DNA of 64,000 nucleotides, taken from assembly GCA_019326865.1 (NCBI GenBank), contig GCA_019326865.1_4101.1, one strand, 5' to 3'. This document shows, one piece after another, positions 12,753 through 36,327 of this stretch (positions are counted from its first letter, which is position 1; every line of letters starts with the position of its first letter). The notes under the pieces were generated by a model. It saw only the letters and a program-made list of their open reading frames with translations. It had not been told where the DNA came from and did not search any database. A program made the translations under genes and the position numbers. The stretch comes from a phage.

Positions 12753-13317
12753 TTACATGACAGAACGTCATCAGATATTATATGATATCAGTACTAAAAT
12801 GTTATCAATTGTTAGTAGTGCGAAAGAAATTGAAAAACAATACCTCATCCGTGATGTAGCAATTTCATCTAAATGTTGGTCCAATGAATATTACGATCAT
12901 GGTATTCTTACTATTTCTGGGGCTAGAAATATTTGTATTGTAAAAAATAAGAAAAAATGCAATGAAGAGTGTGAGATTAGAACCGATATACAAATTAAGG
13001 ATGATGGAAGTTTTTCACACCACCCATTCCATATTAGTACTGTTGGTGTTTTATATAATATTAAAGTACTATTCGGTGATGAAGAGTATGTGTTAAAAGC
13101 TATCAATCCAGAATCAAGTACAGTTGAAGAAGAACTGTTCCAGATGAGCACGGTTATACCTGAAGAGGTTCTTAGTACTGTTATTTTTTGTAGTTTAATT
13201 TATCATGAATACAAAAAGAACCAGTTCGATTTCCACATGTTAGGAACGTACATCTTCAATAATTTGAGCGTAGATCGTTTAAAAGCATTAAATTCAGCGA
13301 TGGATAAGGTTCTATAA
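12739..13317 (+). CDS. hypothetical protein, FamA
   Basis: 192 aa; 'VEEELFQMSTVIPEEVL'. Confidence 0.6.
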   Translation: MNAYSYMTERHQILYDISTKMLSIVSSAKEIEKQYLIRDVAISSKCWSNEYYDHGILTISGARNICIVKNKKKCNEECEIRTDIQIKDDGSFSHHPFHISTVGVLYNIKVLFGDEEYVLKAINPESSTVEEELFQMSTVIPEEVLSTVIFCSLIYHEYKKNQFDFHMLGTYIFNNLSVDRLKALNSAMDKVL

Positions 13318-13745
13318 TGACAAGAGATGATTGTTTGTACATATGGGATGTAGTTGAAAATACACTTTCAAATCCAGAAAATTATAAAACACAAAAAAGA
13401 CAGCGACACAAAACATGGATAGATTTGTTCGTTGAGGACATACATGCAGTGACTATTTGGGATTCACCGAGGGCATCAGCATCTACTCTATTGGACAATG
13501 AATGCATTGATTGCATTAATTCCACTTTTCATCTACACGGTTCTACAATTTTTGGTACATTTCTGGATATTGAAAATAAAGATGATATTGATTCACTTGC
13601 GTTACAATATCAAGTACTGTATAATACTAAATTAATTTACGATTTAGTACTAGCTTCTTATGTGTATAAATTAATGATGAAATATAATCACATTTCAGTA
13701 TCAGTTTATACCAAGGATATTCTTTCATTAAGAGACAAAACATGA
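13317..13745 (+). CDS. hypothetical protein
   Basis: 142 aa ORF, ATGA-type junctions. Confidence 0.5.
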   Translation: MTRDDCLYIWDVVENTLSNPENYKTQKRQRHKTWIDLFVEDIHAVTIWDSPRASASTLLDNECIDCINSTFHLHGSTIFGTFLDIENKDDIDSLALQYQVLYNTKLIYDLVLASYVYKLMMKYNHISVSVYTKDILSLRDKT

Positions 13746-14251
13746 GTTTATTAAATGCACGAGAATTAGTTGAGATGTATGAGATCTTATCTTCATATAA
13801 AAATTCCCCAAAAGATGTAATTCTCAACAAAAAGTTCCATGTCAATGTTGATCATATGAAAAATATAGATATGATTTCTTTAGTGGAAAGTAGTAAATCG
13901 GGTCTTGAGCGTGATATCATGCGTTTGATTTATATTACCAAACCATCATATACTAATGATAGTTCAATTAGTAATGAGACATTTTTGTACACTCCTTATA
14001 CTGATTGTACTTTAGTTTCAGTGTCTAATCAGAAACAAGATACTATCCAATTCATCAATACCAGTACTGATAACATTGAAGAAAATGAATTCCAAAACAA
14101 TACATTAAGTTCATGTAGTAGTGTTATAACCTTTATGTCATATCTGTGGTCAATAAAATCAAATGCAATTGTATATAGTTCTAATTACACACAAGATAGT
14201 ATTGTTGAATCATATAAAGCTCTGAAGGAATACTATGAAAATAACAAATGA
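13742..14251 (+). CDS. hypothetical protein, FamA-like
   Basis: 169 aa; 'MSLLNARELVEMYE', 'IEENEFQNNTLSS'. Confidence 0.55.
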   Translation: MSLLNARELVEMYEILSSYKNSPKDVILNKKFHVNVDHMKNIDMISLVESSKSGLERDIMRLIYITKPSYTNDSSISNETFLYTPYTDCTLVSVSNQKQDTIQFINTSTDNIEENEFQNNTLSSCSSVITFMSYLWSIKSNAIVYSSNYTQDSIVESYKALKEYYENNK

Positions 14252-19561: not shown

Positions 19562-20416
19562 TTGTATATGTTGGACATTTCAGATTTTCTTAATTTTAAA
19601 AAGTATTCAGTACTTGAACATATCAACGAATTTCTGAATTCCCCAACACCATTTGGTATCAGTACATCAGATTCATACGATGGATATAGAATCTTCCCAT
19701 GCAATGACTTTCAAATTTCTGTCAAAAAAGGTTTTACAAAAGAAGTTGCAATTCGTGATGTAGTAATGTATAGCGATTCTTCTATTTCTTACTGTCATGA
19801 TGTGAACAATTTTGAATCTCTTTCAACACCTAATTGTTCATACTACAAATCCCATGACACGATGATGTATAAAGAACAACATATCAATGGTGTTTCGTTC
19901 TACAAAACTAGCAGTGATAAATCATATACATCTAGAGATGATTTTGGAAAATACACATGTACTATGCACACGGATAATGAAAAAACAAATTACACTCATT
20001 CATTCGAGTCCAAATTCCAAGAGAGTGAAGTTTCAAATATCACTATACAAGAACAGGTTTCAGAAGGCATTGTATATCGTAGTACTGCATTCTTTCGCAT
20101 GAAAGATGTTGCCACAGGCAGACCAATGATGTACAATATTGACATATACATGAAAGGTGATATATCAGAAGTAGTGATTAGTACTGGTTATCGTGAAAAA
20201 TATACAGTTACAATGGAATCACCAGATGCATCGTTAGTTCACCTCTTTAACAATTTATATACATTCCAATTCGAACTTAGTTTAGACTACAATGAATATC
20301 AAATATTCGATATATTAAAAAGTAATATTATTAATAAGTTAGAATATTACTACAAGTTAGGTGGTAAGATGTGCATAGTTAATACTATGTTACATAACAT
20401 AAAAGAAACATTATAA
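19562..20416 (+). CDS. hypothetical protein
   Basis: 284 aa; GAGG RBS. Confidence 0.6.
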   Translation: MYMLDISDFLNFKKYSVLEHINEFLNSPTPFGISTSDSYDGYRIFPCNDFQISVKKGFTKEVAIRDVVMYSDSSISYCHDVNNFESLSTPNCSYYKSHDTMMYKEQHINGVSFYKTSSDKSYTSRDDFGKYTCTMHTDNEKTNYTHSFESKFQESEVSNITIQEQVSEGIVYRSTAFFRMKDVATGRPMMYNIDIYMKGDISEVVISTGYREKYTVTMESPDASLVHLFNNLYTFQFELSLDYNEYQIFDILKSNIINKLEYYYKLGGKMCIVNTMLHNIKETL

Positions 20417-21539: not shown

Positions 21540-21547
21540 TAAACCAA

Positions 21548-21580
21548 AGGACGGGATTTGTTATTTCGTCCTTTTTTTTG
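21548..21580 (+). terminator. rho-independent terminator
   Basis: GGACG...CGTCC stem followed by eight T. Confidence 0.65.
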
Positions 21581-21591
21581 TCTGGAGATGT

Positions 21592-22446
21592 ATGAAACTT
21601 TATCTAATCGTTGACTACAATAAGGATTATGCTGGTAACTTCACCGAAGATTCGGATGGATATTGCACATCGACTAATGTCAATGTACGTAGCAGTAGTG
21701 CTCATGAACATGAATCTTGTAAAAATCTAAAAGATTTTATCACATACCGAGCATTTGAAAAGAACTTCTGCCGCAGTAGATATTCTAAGTTTGAGTACCC
21801 ATTAATTGATGTTCCTGATGAATTGATGTTCCAGCTAATGTTAACTGGAGTTCAAGATTATGATTATATTGCTTATAATCACATAACAAAGAAGATTTAC
21901 ATTGGAACATCAGTACACGATACTTCCATGTATGCATCATGCCCAGATGATCGAATGAAGCATAGAAATTCATACTATAGTGGATCAGTTGGTTCAAATA
22001 ATTCATCAAATAAAAATTCATTCTTTGAGTACGTGTATGATTACCATCACGAGAAAAAAGAACGTGAAGATTACTGTATAGAGATTGATAGTACTAATGG
22101 ATATGAAGACGTAAAAGAAGCTCTTATGCCATACATTATAGAAAAATACTACAAAGATTTTCAGTACTGTAGTAATTTTCTAATCAGAAATTCTATTCAA
22201 ATCGGTCGTCAATCCACTGCATACGCTATGTACTACAGTGATTCTCCAGTTGTAGCAGGAAATGAAAGGGGTGATATCCTACCAATTCCACGTGAAGATA
22301 TGACATTCATTTTTACATCTTTTATTGAGGATGATGAATTGTACGTTAAAAATAAGCATCGTTTCATGCCAAGTAAAATTGAGATTATTAGAAGCATCAG
22401 TGTTGATATATTAACCAATTTTACTGAAAAAACTGAATATAACTGA
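21592..22446 (+). CDS. hypothetical protein
   Basis: 284 aa; contains 'DVPDELMFQLML'; strong terminator downstream. Confidence 0.6.
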   Translation: MKLYLIVDYNKDYAGNFTEDSDGYCTSTNVNVRSSSAHEHESCKNLKDFITYRAFEKNFCRSRYSKFEYPLIDVPDELMFQLMLTGVQDYDYIAYNHITKKIYIGTSVHDTSMYASCPDDRMKHRNSYYSGSVGSNNSSNKNSFFEYVYDYHHEKKEREDYCIEIDSTNGYEDVKEALMPYIIEKYYKDFQYCSNFLIRNSIQIGRQSTAYAMYYSDSPVVAGNERGDILPIPREDMTFIFTSFIEDDELYVKNKHRFMPSKIEIIRSISVDILTNFTEKTEYN

Positions 22447-22463
22447 GACAAAATAGAAGTTAA

Positions 22464-22472
22464 TGATATAAT
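22464..22472 (+). promoter_or_regulatory. extended -10-like TGATATAAT element
   Basis: exact motif 5 nt upstream of terminator hairpin; functional status unclear. Confidence 0.25.
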
Positions 22473-22476
22473 GTGA

Positions 22477-22506
22477 GGTGACAGTATATACTGTCACCTT
22501 TTTTTA
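22477..22506 (+). terminator. rho-independent terminator (22-nt perfect palindrome)
   Basis: GGTGACAGTATATACTGTCACC then TTTTTTT. Confidence 0.8.
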
Positions 22507-23123
22507 ATCCTGAAAGGTTCCTATAAGGAAATGATTAAAAGCCTAATCCACTCGAAAATGTAGAGGGTAGATGAGTAGTCCTTTCAGTACGAACAGCAGA
22601 TGAAACCCGTTAGATGATGGCATAGTTTGAACCACTCACGGCAATGCGGCTGTATAAAGAACTCCAATAGGATAAAGAGAGTTCCTAGATAGACATATAA
22701 GGATCGCACCTTACCAATTATCTAAGGGAGATTTCATAAGAAATATGCGGTCGGAATTATACAATATAGTTGCGTCCAAATTTTGTGAAATCAAATACAA
22801 GTACTGGTCATATGGTATTTGTATTATGTGTCGGGATGTTTAAGACCGACGACCGTTGCTACAAGAACCGCGATAGAGAGAAACAGAGCAACCCGCTTTC
22901 GTCTCGTAAGAGAATTCGTGATATGAACTATGTGAAGGCCACCAGCGTCAAACTTTTTTGTTCTTTCCCCTGCGGGGGGATGAAATATGCTCAAGCAAAC
23001 CTCGTCAATATTAATTAAAAGACTTTATAATACTTGTAGAATTGTACATGCACCGCATGGAGAATTCTACTGATGTTGATGTAATCAACATCACGTATAT
23101 TCATTGATGTTTCCATAGGAATA
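22507..23123 (+). other. GC-enriched non-coding island (candidate structured RNA or foreign remnant)
   Basis: no convincing ORF; sampled 60-nt lines 42-48 percent GC vs about 27-33 percent in flanking genes; bounded by terminator and palindrome. Confidence 0.4.
23071..23093. repeat. perfect inverted repeat TGATGTTGAT-gta-ATCAACATCA
   Basis: 10-bp arms, 3-nt spacer, 30 nt upstream of CDS 23124; no T-run. Confidence 0.6.
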
Positions 23124-23669
23124 ATGATGGCATTTATTAAAAAAGAAAAAACTATTACTTATAAAACTTTGAATTTTGATGATTGTATTAATCAATCACA
23201 GGACGAAAATATTTTTACTGGATATGTGGTTATTAAAGAAAAAGGATGCATTTCTTATATAAAGGAATTGCAAAATGGCATTGAAGTCACTTCAGTTAAA
23301 TTACTTCCTACACAAAAACCAACAATATCAAAAGCCCAGTACGGTAATTATTTCGAGGAAAGATACAGTAATAATTTAATAAGTGTTAAAGCTCATATTG
23401 TAAAAGGAGAACTAGAAGGAGAATATAGAAAATTCAACCCACAAGGAAAATGTGTTTGGGTTAAATACTACAATTCAGGTGTTGATATAACATCTGAAAT
23501 TATAGAGTTCTTAGGGTTGTCATGTACACCTGAAACTCTTCATGACTACAAATTTAATACTGAAGAAGAGTTTAATCTGATGATGCGTTATGGATCACAT
23601 TTTAAATTTTTATATGAATATAACGTTGACAGTAGTATTTTTGATAAAATAGTACATAACTGTCTATAA
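23124..23669 (+). CDS. hypothetical protein
   Basis: 181 aa; AGGAA RBS; palindrome just upstream. Confidence 0.55.
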   Translation: MMAFIKKEKTITYKTLNFDDCINQSQDENIFTGYVVIKEKGCISYIKELQNGIEVTSVKLLPTQKPTISKAQYGNYFEERYSNNLISVKAHIVKGELEGEYRKFNPQGKCVWVKYYNSGVDITSEIIEFLGLSCTPETLHDYKFNTEEEFNLMMRYGSHFKFLYEYNVDSSIFDKIVHNCL

Positions 23670-23685
23670 CAAAAGGATTTATATA

Positions 23686-24207
23686 ATGTCGAAGAAGGAT
23701 ACTTCGAATAAGCACTCAGTTCATTTCAGTACTGGAAAAGATAACTGGACAACCCCAAAAGATTTTTTTGAAGATTTAGATGAGTTATGGGGATTTACAC
23801 TTGATGCTGCTTGTGTAGATGAGACTGCATTGTGTGATAATTTTTTCACTCCAGAAGATGATTCACTGTCACAGGATTGGGGAAATAATATAGTTTGGTT
23901 GAATCCACCATATAGTGACTTAAAAACATGGTTATCTAAAGCTGTAGATGCATATAATAACGGAGCAACTGTAGTTATTCTTGTACCCTCAAGAACCGAT
24001 ACAATTGCTTTTCAGGATTATGCTGCTAAAATATGTGATTGTATTTGTTTTATTAAGGGAAGATTGCGATTTGGTATACCAGAAGAACCCGATAAGAAAA
24101 CTGATTCAGCACCATTTCCTTCGTGTCTGATAGTTCTGGATAAGTACTTAACCACTGCTAAAATCAATTGTCTTAAATCTCTCGGATTGGTGATGAAGAA
24201 TTTATGA
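23686..24207 (+). CDS. DNA methyltransferase, phage Dam-like (N6-adenine type by NPPY motif)
   Basis: 173 aa; catalytic 'WLNPPYSD' (D/N-P-P-Y/F) motif; size typical of small phage MTases. Confidence 0.7.
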   Translation: MSKKDTSNKHSVHFSTGKDNWTTPKDFFEDLDELWGFTLDAACVDETALCDNFFTPEDDSLSQDWGNNIVWLNPPYSDLKTWLSKAVDAYNNGATVVILVPSRTDTIAFQDYAAKICDCICFIKGRLRFGIPEEPDKKTDSAPFPSCLIVLDKYLTTAKINCLKSLGLVMKNL

Positions 24208-24737
24208 AAGAAACATGTATATTATCATTTATGAGATGTAACCCAGTCCACAATGGACATGGTTTAGTTTTTGAAAAGGCCAAAACATTACAAGAACAGT
24301 ACAATGCTGATTTAAAAATTTATCTAAGCACTAGTACTGACAATATAAAAAACCCACTACCACCTGAACTAAAAATGTATTATACAGAGGGATTCTATCC
24401 TTCAGTGCAAGAGAACATCTACACAGAGGACAATCTATTTGATATAATGAGAGAACTGGATGGAAAGTACTTAGATGTTCTCTTCATATGTGGTTCTGAC
24501 CGTATTGATTCTTTTCAGAAAACCCTTGACACTTACAATGGGAAGTTGTATAATTTTTGTAATATAAAAGTAATTCAAGCAGGTATTGACCGCCAATCAA
24601 GTCGATATAGCTCAACACAAATGCGTAAGTTTGCCAAAAATGAAGATTTTGATAGTTTTCGTGAGTTTTTGCCTGGAAATGACGAGAACTTAAAAATTCA
24701 ATTATTTGAAGATGTTATAAAATACATGAGGAAATAA
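24204..24737 (+). CDS. HIGH-motif nucleotidyltransferase (NMNAT/PPAT-like)
   Basis: 'SFMRCNPVHNGH' (HxGH) and 'SSTQMR' (ISSTxxR-like) motifs; ATGA overlap with MTase. Confidence 0.65.
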   Translation: MKETCILSFMRCNPVHNGHGLVFEKAKTLQEQYNADLKIYLSTSTDNIKNPLPPELKMYYTEGFYPSVQENIYTEDNLFDIMRELDGKYLDVLFICGSDRIDSFQKTLDTYNGKLYNFCNIKVIQAGIDRQSSRYSSTQMRKFAKNEDFDSFREFLPGNDENLKIQLFEDVIKYMRK

Positions 24738-35995: not shown

Positions 35996-36301
35996 ATGGA
36001 TATACAAACATTCAATAAACTAAAGTACTATGATAATGGTTTTGTATTAATAATTAACGAACTTGATAGTATACCATACGAATATCATAATCAAGTAATG
36101 AATATAGTAAAAAATATATGTGAAGAACTAAAAAGTATATTTAAAAATGAATATGTTTATGATTTAGGTAATAATAGAACAAAACTATACATAAAGAAAT
36201 TCTGGGGAACACATTGTGGTTTGATGGTCGATTTGGGTTTAAGTTTAGACAATAATTTCGAATCATGTTCATTATATTTGGACGAAATGAGAATCTCATG
36301 A
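35996..36301 (+). CDS. hypothetical protein
   Basis: 101 aa ORF. Confidence 0.5.
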   Translation: MDIQTFNKLKYYDNGFVLIINELDSIPYEYHNQVMNIVKNICEELKSIFKNEYVYDLGNNRTKLYIKKFWGTHCGLMVDLGLSLDNNFESCSLYLDEMRIS

Positions 36302-36318
36302 GACATAAGGACATTCGG

Positions 36319-36327
36319 TGATATAAT
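36319..36327 (+). promoter_or_regulatory. extended -10 element TGATATAAT
   Basis: 32 nt upstream of CDS 36359; no clear -35. Confidence 0.35.

Follow-up and report, generated by a model that had tools for sequence, protein, structure and literature searches.

The DNA analysed here (hereafter referred to as the window) is a 64,000-nucleotide (nt) stretch of phage DNA, taken from contig GCA_019326865.1_4101.1 of the NCBI GenBank assembly GCA_019326865.1. Its closest relative is UE-S1 (98.7% by megablast), and it falls in the genus Asteriusvirus of jumbo coliphages (121Q, PBECO4, phAPEC6). We focused on the positions 22464–22506, at which a promoter-like element is followed by a palindromic hairpin and a run of T residues, in the gap between two open reading frames (ORFs). 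The main result of our analysis lies just outside these coordinates. The hairpin is followed by what we predict to be a member of a multi-copy family of pseudoknotted RNAs of ~0.5 kb, which occurs both in jumbo phages and in integrative islands of Enterobacterales. The features of the locus are as follows.

21592–22446, + strand: upstream ORF of 284 amino acids (aa), orthologue of 121Q gp415, PHROG 15199; stop codon TGA at 22444–22446
22444–22449, + strand: −35-like box TGAGAC, 17 nt before TATAAT; TGAAAC in most relatives
22464–22472, + strand: putative extended −10 element TGATATAAT; TATAAT at 22467–22472 with TG upstream
22473–22476, + strand: spacer GTGA, 4 nt, between the −10 element and the stem
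22477–22498, + strand: perfect 22-nt palindrome GGTGACAGTATATACTGTCACC; RNA hairpin of 9 bp with a 4-nt loop, extendable to 11 pairs (22475–22500)
22499–22505, + strand: T7 run, corresponding to the U-tract of an intrinsic terminator; followed by A at 22506
22506–23008, + strand: body of the predicted RNA, from AAUCCUG to CAAACCUCGUCAA; 21 helices including three pseudoknots; no ORF longer than 82 aa
22575–22577/22588–22590, + strand: pseudoknot helix, from covariation
22637–22650, + strand: invariant junction motif CACGGCAAUGCGGC
22688–22699, + strand: invariant junction motif GAUAGACAUAUA
22723–22729, + strand: invariant junction motif UAAGGGA
22809–22813/22921–22925, + strand: pseudoknot helix, from covariation
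22855–22859/22888–22892, + strand: pseudoknot helix, from covariation
23009–23123, + strand: variable, AT-rich spacer with two inverted repeats (~23036–23070 and 23071–23093) and promoter-like hexamers
23124–23669, + strand: downstream ORF of 181 aa, orthologue of 121Q gp416, PHROG 16210; syntenic marker
23686–24207, + strand: Dam methyltransferase gene, after the ORF 23124–23669; syntenic marker

Read along the + strand, the order is AAC TGA GAC AAAATAGAAGTTAA TGATATAAT GTGA GGTGACAGTAT/ATACTGTCACC TTTTTTT AATCCTGAAAGG. The stop codon of the upstream ORF constitutes the first three bases of the TGAGAC box, and the hairpin lies 31 nt past that stop. A site scan returned a promoter-like site with a TG extension (22443/22445–22472) and a terminator-like site (22475–22500; 11 pairs, 4-nt loop, T tail). 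An earlier reading of the letters alone (hereafter referred to as the original prediction) had noted TGATATAAT at 22464–22472 together with the palindrome and the T-run, all of which are present as described; the gap that it gave as 5 nt is actually 4 nt, and the T-run ends at 22505. The GC-rich island that it mentioned after the hairpin also exists in a modest form, with 41% G+C at 22506–23008 vs 33% and 28% in the flanking ORFs. The flanking ORFs matched no Pfam domain. Public records list them as hypothetical, followed by Dam methyltransferase and cytidylyltransferase, and within the ~680-nt gap they annotate at most the hairpin and occasional small spurious ORFs.

Covariation in the RNA body

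To describe the base pairing of the region after the T-run, we aligned related copies. RNAalifold, applied to 20 copies, gave 67 pairs, 36 of which showed compensatory double changes. The covariation set comprised 46 sequences, less than 95% identical to each other, which were of phage or metagenomic origin or taken from bacterial contigs. Before the pairs were counted, we added to the structure three crossing helices that covariation had revealed. As controls, we used the same structure with the 3′ partners moved by 1–3 columns (slid controls) as well as 500 shuffles, the latter scored by five measures. Pairing was retained in 94.8% of 4,574 cells, as compared with 35–42% in the slid controls. 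Changes on both sides were found in 67 of 102 pairs (26–33 in the slid controls), and the covariation score was 0.441 (0.055–0.109 in the slid controls). On all five measures, every one of the 500 shuffles fell short of the observed value. Pairing was complete (100%) in all three pseudoknot helices, each of which showed two to three pair types. A crude all-against-all covariation scan proved too noisy, because the sequences share ancestry, and we retained from it only contiguous, 100%-paired helices with multiple pair types. Many positions form G-U pairs in some of the sequences, which fits the promoter-sense strand only.

About 100 positions are invariant (96 listed, in the 46-sequence alignment), mostly in the junctions; further invariant junction motifs, beyond those listed above, are CGGCAAUG, GACCGU and ACCCGCUU. 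A hairpin with six G and four C residues (G6/C4) is located near the 3′ end of the RNA. The interval 22447–23123 contains no ORF longer than 82 aa, and the longest one (82 aa) is not conserved. A protein gene or pseudogene was ruled out, as the copies differ from each other by single-base insertions and deletions (indels) and their variation is concentrated in compensating helix positions. A short ATG-led frame after GGGGGGAUGAAA was dismissed as well, being broken by indels between copies.

Several copies carry structural additions of their own. The syntenic RNA of UE-S1 (locus L001, 3964–4679, aligned with 22464–23124 of the window) has an internal duplication of ~54 nt, such that the profile segment ~151–205 is matched twice and the intergenic region measures 731 nt instead of 677 nt. 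In L132 (3503–4115), L146, L187, L052 (121Q copy 2) and L105, an internal terminator-like hairpin followed by T6–T7 precedes the C-rich/G-rich 3′ hairpin. Located inside the RNA, such hairpins with a U-run cannot merely terminate transcription, or the conserved 3′ part would not be synthesised. The motif UACAAUAUAGAUCCGUCC(A/U)(A/G)AAUU occurs twice in island-type copies (e.g. L136, L134 and L187) and in the phage class L105/L122, once in the core and once in a segment inserted into the loop of the helix 22903–22912 of the window; it looks like a reusable module for a tertiary contact or for protein binding.

On the 3′ side, two adjacent inverted repeats, GTAGAATT...AATTCTAC and GATGTTGAT..ATCAACATC (23036–23093, + strand), lie between the RNA body and the ORF that begins at 23124. 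Other copies of the RNA have analogous 3′ hairpins plus a promoter-like site, TTGACT-N17-TAnnnT, with an inverted repeat in its spacer.

Copies in jumbo phages and integrative islands

Of the whole locus, the gap is the part that is best conserved at the DNA level. When 22447–23123 alone was used as the blastn query, 62 phage records matched. The identity of the gap exceeded that of the 2.2-kb neighbourhood in PBECO4 (95.5% vs 89.7%) and in Ecwhy_1 (92.7% vs 86.5%). The segment ~22531–23018 retains 70–76% DNA identity in GAP32, CBB, Serratia BF, Yersinia fHe-Yen9-04 and in Erwinia, Salmonella and Xanthomonas jumbo phages; the flanking proteins in distant jumbo phages are 27% and 37% identical to those of the window. 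The synteny is kept, with an ORF of 260–284 aa, the hairpin, a gap of ~700 nt, an ORF of ~175 aa and Dam following one another.

Each jumbo genome of the 121Q/PBECO4, GAP32/CBB and Serratia BF/Yersinia fHe-Yen9-04 groups has 3–5 dispersed copies (4–5 matching places by blastn). Pattern scans and nhmmer located the other copies of 121Q at about 90.3, 192.7 and 326.6 kb, and neither blastn nor nhmmer found a second copy within the 64-kb window. The copies occupy at least four different gene contexts, one class being antisense to both neighbours. In 121Q, UE-S1 and CBB, this class, which adjoins the endonuclease VII gene, is encoded on the other strand from its two neighbours, and the UE-S1 copy has its own annotated terminator ~150 nt past the conserved body. 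The antisense arrangement argues that the element is not a 5′ untranslated region or leader but an independent RNA gene.

A 23-base gapped pattern retrieved 49 metagenome stretches and 9 stretches of GTDB genomes. All of the 49 metagenome stretches were matched by nhmmer, mostly at full length with a few cut by contig ends, as were eight of the nine genome stretches at full length. Five IMG/VR matches to GATAGACATATA...TAAGGGA (L113, L115, L117, L118 and L126) were discarded as chance matches in coding DNA. The chromosomal copies, one per island, are located just 3′ of an integrase gene, on the same strand, and face a convergent gene for a CI-like repressor, as found on large contigs of, for example, Citrobacter amalonaticus (620 kb contig), Enterobacter chinensis (484 kb), Serratia, Silvania and Buttiauxella. 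A tie to one type of integrase was rejected, since tyrosine recombinases and large serine recombinases both precede island copies. The island copies are nearest to the endonuclease VII-adjacent class of the jumbo phages, and blastp identified no neighbour protein common to the phage and island contexts. Among complete E. coli genomes, 2 of 5,426 have a copy, which is unannotated in RefSeq. Strains with an island copy include E. coli LR-29-1 and C. amalonaticus P55.

In one island (L145), a gene for KwaB of the Kiwa defence system (13083–14033, − strand) lies ~4.4 kb from the RNA; the same island has a small resolvase/invertase gene and an LprI-like gene, as well as variable cargo without a Pfam match between the integrase and the RNA. 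In the Klebsiella phage RaK2 (JQ513383), only a ~100-nt segment (191602–191698) matched, at 76% identity, the core of the island-type RNA, and RaK2-like Klebsiella jumbo phages may thus contain a much more divergent member of the family.

The promoter, the hairpin and the rival explanations

Comparison of the copies indicates that TGATATAAT is the extended −10 element of a genuine promoter. Bare matches of the −10 type are unremarkable (37 promoter-like sites in the site scan vs 29 expected), whereas the composite TGARAC-N17-TATAAT occurs twice in the 64-kb window vs 0.07 times expected. TGnTATAAT is present in 20 of 20 aligned copies; the TATA core and the final T are invariant, and the second base is G in at least 90%. 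The box TGA(A/G)AC is found exactly 17 nt before it in all syntenic orthologues and in all paralogue classes, including the copies without the hairpin. Altogether, this promoter is kept at more than 60 distinct related loci, even between genera whose flanking proteins share only 27–37% identity, and the island copies have the same promoter type with T(G/C)nTATA(A/C)T as the −10 element. Whether it is read as TGAGAC or as GAGACA, the −35-like box matches TTGACA at only 3–4 of 6 positions; what is conserved is TGA(A/G)AC at exactly 17 nt. Because the promoter is conserved in all copies and the composite exceeds its expectation (2 vs 0.07), the −10 match is not coincidental, and the element of chance in one option of the original prediction, a terminator with a chance −10 match, is refuted.

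A ‘divergent RpoD-like’ promoter class with TGAAACG as the −35 and TATA as the −10 element has been predicted in front of genes of CBB and GAP32 (Buttimer et al. 2017, PMC5259590). That motif was derived from sequences 5′ of ORFs, and the RNA genes were not described there (PMC5259590). The box of the window, TGAGACA, is one substitution away from TGAAACG, and the orthologues in GAP32, CBB, BF and Yen9-04 have TGAAACG/A. By its TGAGAC/TGAAAC box, its spacing of ~17 nt and its TATAAT, the promoter of the window is assignable to this class. It differs from the published examples in that it would drive a non-coding RNA and travels into islands that encode no phage transcription factors. The second composite site in the window (36299–36327, + strand; TGAGACATAAGGACATTCGGTGATATAAT), which is the sole other exact one, is followed by a ribosome-binding site, AAGGAGAGG, and an ORF start; as it precedes an ordinary ORF, the same promoter class is apparently used for protein genes as well. 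The promoter would be read by the host sigma-70 holoenzyme, possibly with the help of a phage factor, and the transcription start (+1) is predicted at 22478–22480, 6–8 nt past the −10 element and 1–3 nt inside the 5′ arm of the stem. Further downstream (24526–24554, + strand), a 12/12 match to the sigma-70 consensus TTGACA-17-TATAAT occurs within a cytidylyltransferase-like ORF (24204–24737).

The hairpin itself folds at −16.7 kcal/mol, as compared with −4.3 ± 2.2 for shuffled sequences (z = −5.6; none of 200 shuffles as good), and has 5 G-C pairs among its 9–11 pairs, with a 4-nt loop. Four terminator-like sites were found in 5 kb vs 1.3 expected. On the minus strand no T-run follows the stem, and a terminator here would work in the + direction only. 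The orthologues contain 17 distinct stems (for instance GGTGACAG, GGACAGTA, GGACGGTG, GGGTAAAGG and GGGACC), which are all paired, have −8 to −16 kcal/mol, start 4–7 nt past the −10 element and are each followed by T5–T8. ARNOLD terminators are annotated on the orthologous hairpins of phages G17 and GAP32. We also considered the palindrome as an operator for a dimeric protein and rejected this idea, as it is imperfect or wholly different in close relatives, with pairing alone retained. The perfect palindrome is not conserved even in 121Q, which points to selection on RNA pairing and not on a symmetric protein site. Thus, the stem, the U-tract, the same-strand gene upstream and the signs of selection mark the hairpin plus T7 as an intrinsic terminator by sequence criteria.

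The position of this putative terminator correlates with the layout of the genes. The stop codon of the upstream ORF is located 8–20 nt before TATAAT in 12 of 12 orthologues examined. The syntenic class and one XaC1 copy with a like ORF-abutting layout have ~30–35 nt inserted, consisting of the hairpin and T5–T8. The other paralogue classes have no terminator hairpin or U-tract, and their body (AAU(C/U)CUG...) starts ~6–27 nt past the −10 element. Two other copies, located after same-strand genes, are preceded by an ordinary terminator 5′ of the promoter. As the upstream ORF of the syntenic class ends inside the promoter, there is no room for a terminator ahead of it, and the terminator is placed just past the −10 element. 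On the simplest reading, therefore, the hairpin is the terminator of the upstream gene that has been shifted into the RNA gene, within its first ~30 transcribed bases. The original prediction was right in reading a terminator here: compensatory changes have preserved the hairpin and the T-run precisely in those copies whose upstream ORF stops within the promoter. The comparative data also support its suggestion of the 5′ end of an RNA that runs into the GC-rich island, the island being the covariation-supported RNA, whose body begins right after the T-run.

Directly 5′ of the upstream ORF, at 21546–21574 (+ strand), there is another strong terminator-like hairpin (12 pairs plus T8), which is annotated as a terminator in UE-S1 and G17. 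With the hairpin at 22477–22498, it brackets the 284-aa ORF (21592–22446) between two terminators, without an obvious promoter of its own. The ORF at 19562–20416, 1.2 kb away, also encodes 284 aa; similarity between the two is not detectable and they belong to different PHROGs (27741 vs 15199), and the equal length appears to be a coincidence.

Our best explanation of the whole, to which we assign a probability of about 0.62, combines a genuine promoter, an RNA gene of ~530 nt and a displaced terminator of the upstream gene that doubles as a 5′ stem-loop. The promoter would transcribe a non-coding RNA of ~530 nt, from about 22478–22480 to at least 23008. Transcripts arriving from upstream would form the full 11-pair hairpin (−16.7 kcal/mol) and stop there, which would insulate the RNA gene and fix the 5′ end of its RNA. 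Transcripts from the RNA's own promoter would start 1–3 nt into the 5′ arm and form a shortened hairpin, of −10.8 kcal/mol for a start at 22478 or −7.4 kcal/mol for a start at 22480, with 1–3 unpaired bases before the U-run; many of them should then read into the RNA body, and some attenuation of the syntenic copy is likely. A base-paired 5′ end slows the RNase E/RppH-dependent decay of RNA, as exemplified by the ompA 5′ hairpin. Since the stem begins at or beside +1, the 5′ end of the RNA would be base-paired, and the hairpin, retained as a 5′-terminal stem-loop, should shield it from 5′-end-dependent decay. The likeness to such stabilising stem-loops resides in the predicted +1, 0–3 nt from the stem base, with almost no unpaired 5′ tail; the difference is the conserved U-run, which a stabiliser, as we suppose the hairpin to be, does not need.

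Several observations weigh against this explanation. A predicted start inside the stem removes only 0–2 bp in most orthologues, and in the metagenomic L019 and L063 the stem begins 7 nt past the −10 element, placing the entire hairpin within the transcript of its own promoter. The notion that starting inside the stem affords full escape from termination is thus weakened, and as few base pairs are lost, the escape would be at best partial; much of the transcription from the RNA's own promoter may end at the hairpin. In addition, no intrinsic terminator that would mark the 3′ end of the RNA was found after the RNA body, in the sequence 3′ of 23008. We infer the start site, the extent of termination and read-through, the 3′ end, the stabilising role of the hairpin and the function of the RNA from the sequence.

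These same observations would be accommodated by an attenuator or antitermination switch, which we regard as unlikely while taking it seriously. The promoter would be constitutive, most transcripts would end at the hairpin (~25–30 nt), and the body and downstream genes would be expressed only when a phage or host factor makes the polymerase ignore the terminator, a layout like lambda pR′-tR′ with Q. A start 6–7 nt past the −10 element leaves a hairpin of −7 to −13.8 kcal/mol plus U5–U8 in every orthologue, the hairpin stays complete in the transcripts of L019 and L063, the RNA body is not separated from the next ORFs by a terminator, and the arrangement is conserved across genera. However, such a hairpin is lacking from every other copy of the RNA, with the promoter being the same, which indicates that the RNA needs no switch, and the hairpin is found exactly where the upstream ORF needs a terminator. 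Neither a Q-like gene nor a Q-binding or pause element was noticed near the locus, where no systematic search was made for them. The resemblance to the lambda system (a strong promoter, an intrinsic terminator within tens of bases, coupled signals) is only superficial: the terminator here is at about +1 vs +194 in lambda, serves the upstream ORF and is absent from the paralogues. At the opposite extreme, the hairpin could be a plain terminator of the upstream gene beside a chance −10 element, with the downstream 620 nt as a spacer or decayed gene. The abundance of promoter-like hexamers in AT-rich DNA and the public records, which annotate only a terminator here, would suit this view. It is already contradicted by the comparative data and, to us, scarcely credible: the −10 element, its TG extension and the −35-like box are conserved at loci some of which lack the hairpin, and the downstream region, the most conserved of the locus, shows strong covariation, contains no ORF and has indels that are not frame-preserving.

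The other two alternatives concern what the transcript is for. It could be a structured pre-primer RNA of ~0.5 kb in a replication or priming module, like ColE1 RNA II or T4 oriF/oriG; the several copies would then be multiple phage origins, and the island copies would let an infecting jumbo phage amplify the islands. Features in line with this proposal include an RNA of ~500–600 nt with a strong promoter and no terminator, running into AT-rich DNA, the 3–5 dispersed copies per jumbo genome, the single copy with the same promoter type in integrase-bearing islands, the lack of a conserved partner protein nearby and the G6/C4 hairpin near the 3′ end. ColE1 RNA II and the T4 origins share with our element the structured RNA of ~550 nt, the strong promoter and the lack of a terminator, and T4-like genomes also have several promoter-dependent sites each. 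Nevertheless, about 100 invariant positions and three pseudoknots across very different elements exceed what is found in known primer RNAs, conservation and pseudoknot content being far higher in the present RNA, and the cumulative GC skew has no inflection at the locus. We give this proposal only a slim chance. A long cis-acting 5′ leader that regulates the gp416-Dam-cytidylyltransferase operon is still less probable. It would agree with the lack of a terminator between the RNA body and the ORF at 23124 and with the syntenic arrangement kept across genera. It is at odds with the paralogues in unrelated contexts, with the endonuclease VII-adjacent copy, which has no same-strand gene downstream and ends in its own annotated terminator in UE-S1, with the island copies, which precede a convergent repressor gene, and with the promoter-like elements between the RNA body and the next ORF.

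Possible function and comparison with known RNAs

Returning to the displaced terminator and the independent RNA gene, we consider it most likely that the RNA acts in trans, as a structured or ribozyme-like RNA, alone or with host factors or in an RNA-protein complex. The main functional alternatives are the replication-priming module and a phage-satellite or defence decoy. A more far-reaching proposal, which we advance as a doubtful one, is that the family represents a class of large functional RNA not seen before, acting as a ribozyme or forming the core of an RNA-protein machine, and that it moves as a self-contained module of promoter plus RNA between lytic jumbo phages and integrase-bearing host islands, the island copies serving as a hijacking signal or anti-phage decoy. 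Hijacking, if true, might for example mean that the island copies are origins or priming modules, by which satellite-like islands take advantage of a jumbo phage during infection. Since integrative islands with defence genes also have the RNA, it may take part in replication or in conflicts of phages with their hosts or satellites.

The family is abundant: every member of a well-studied group of therapeutic jumbo phages, whose hosts are E. coli, Salmonella, Cronobacter, Serratia, Yersinia, Erwinia and Pectobacterium, contains 3–5 copies, and the RNA is unannotated in all public records inspected. The annotations of G17 and GAP32, in which the hairpin was called a terminator and the RNA gene behind it was missed, may serve as a warning. 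The overlap of promoter and terminator would illustrate, in a compact form, how an RNA gene of a phage can be insulated from the ORF that abuts it.

The RNA matches no Rfam 15 family, and our searches among known RNAs indicate that its family has not been described previously. At the gathering score, Rfam 15 gave no match in the 64-kb window. With E values up to 10, only chance-level matches were obtained in 22300–23300, those to CsrC and SpF39 being the terminator hairpin, and permissive thresholds gave no match in any RNA body of 8 related loci. ARAGORN found no tRNA or tmRNA gene in the window. The long non-coding RNAs of the related jumbo phage PA5oct, including ncRNA002, were defined by RNA-seq (PMC7318152), and nhmmer detected no homology to ncRNA002. 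The literature, searched by topic and by invariant sequence strings, contained no description of the RNA that we could find, nor is such an RNA mentioned in a 2026 review on the biology of jumbo phages. A resemblance to group I introns or RNase P, based on similarities in the short motifs GAUAGACA and AGAAACCCG, was dropped, as no covariance model matched and the element is not inside a gene. A cis-regulatory leader or riboswitch was set aside too, because the copies, in at least four contexts, hold no constant same-strand position before one gene family.

To our knowledge, a complex, pseudoknotted fold with support from covariation is very rare among the RNAs of bacteria and phages that exceed 400 nt, and the earlier large classes that we know of (RNase P, group I and II introns, OLE, GOLLD, ROOL and HEARO) proved to be catalytic or part of an RNA-protein machine, or have been long-standing puzzles. 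The present RNA resembles GOLLD, ROOL, OLE and HEARO in its size of ~0.5 kb, its many covarying helices, its pseudoknots, its conserved unpaired junctions and its lack of coding capacity, and GOLLD and ROOL, in addition, in being associated with phages or mobile elements. It differs from all four in matching none of them in sequence or structure, in residing in mobile elements of Enterobacterales, in occurring in multiple copies per phage genome and in having a conserved promoter of its own.

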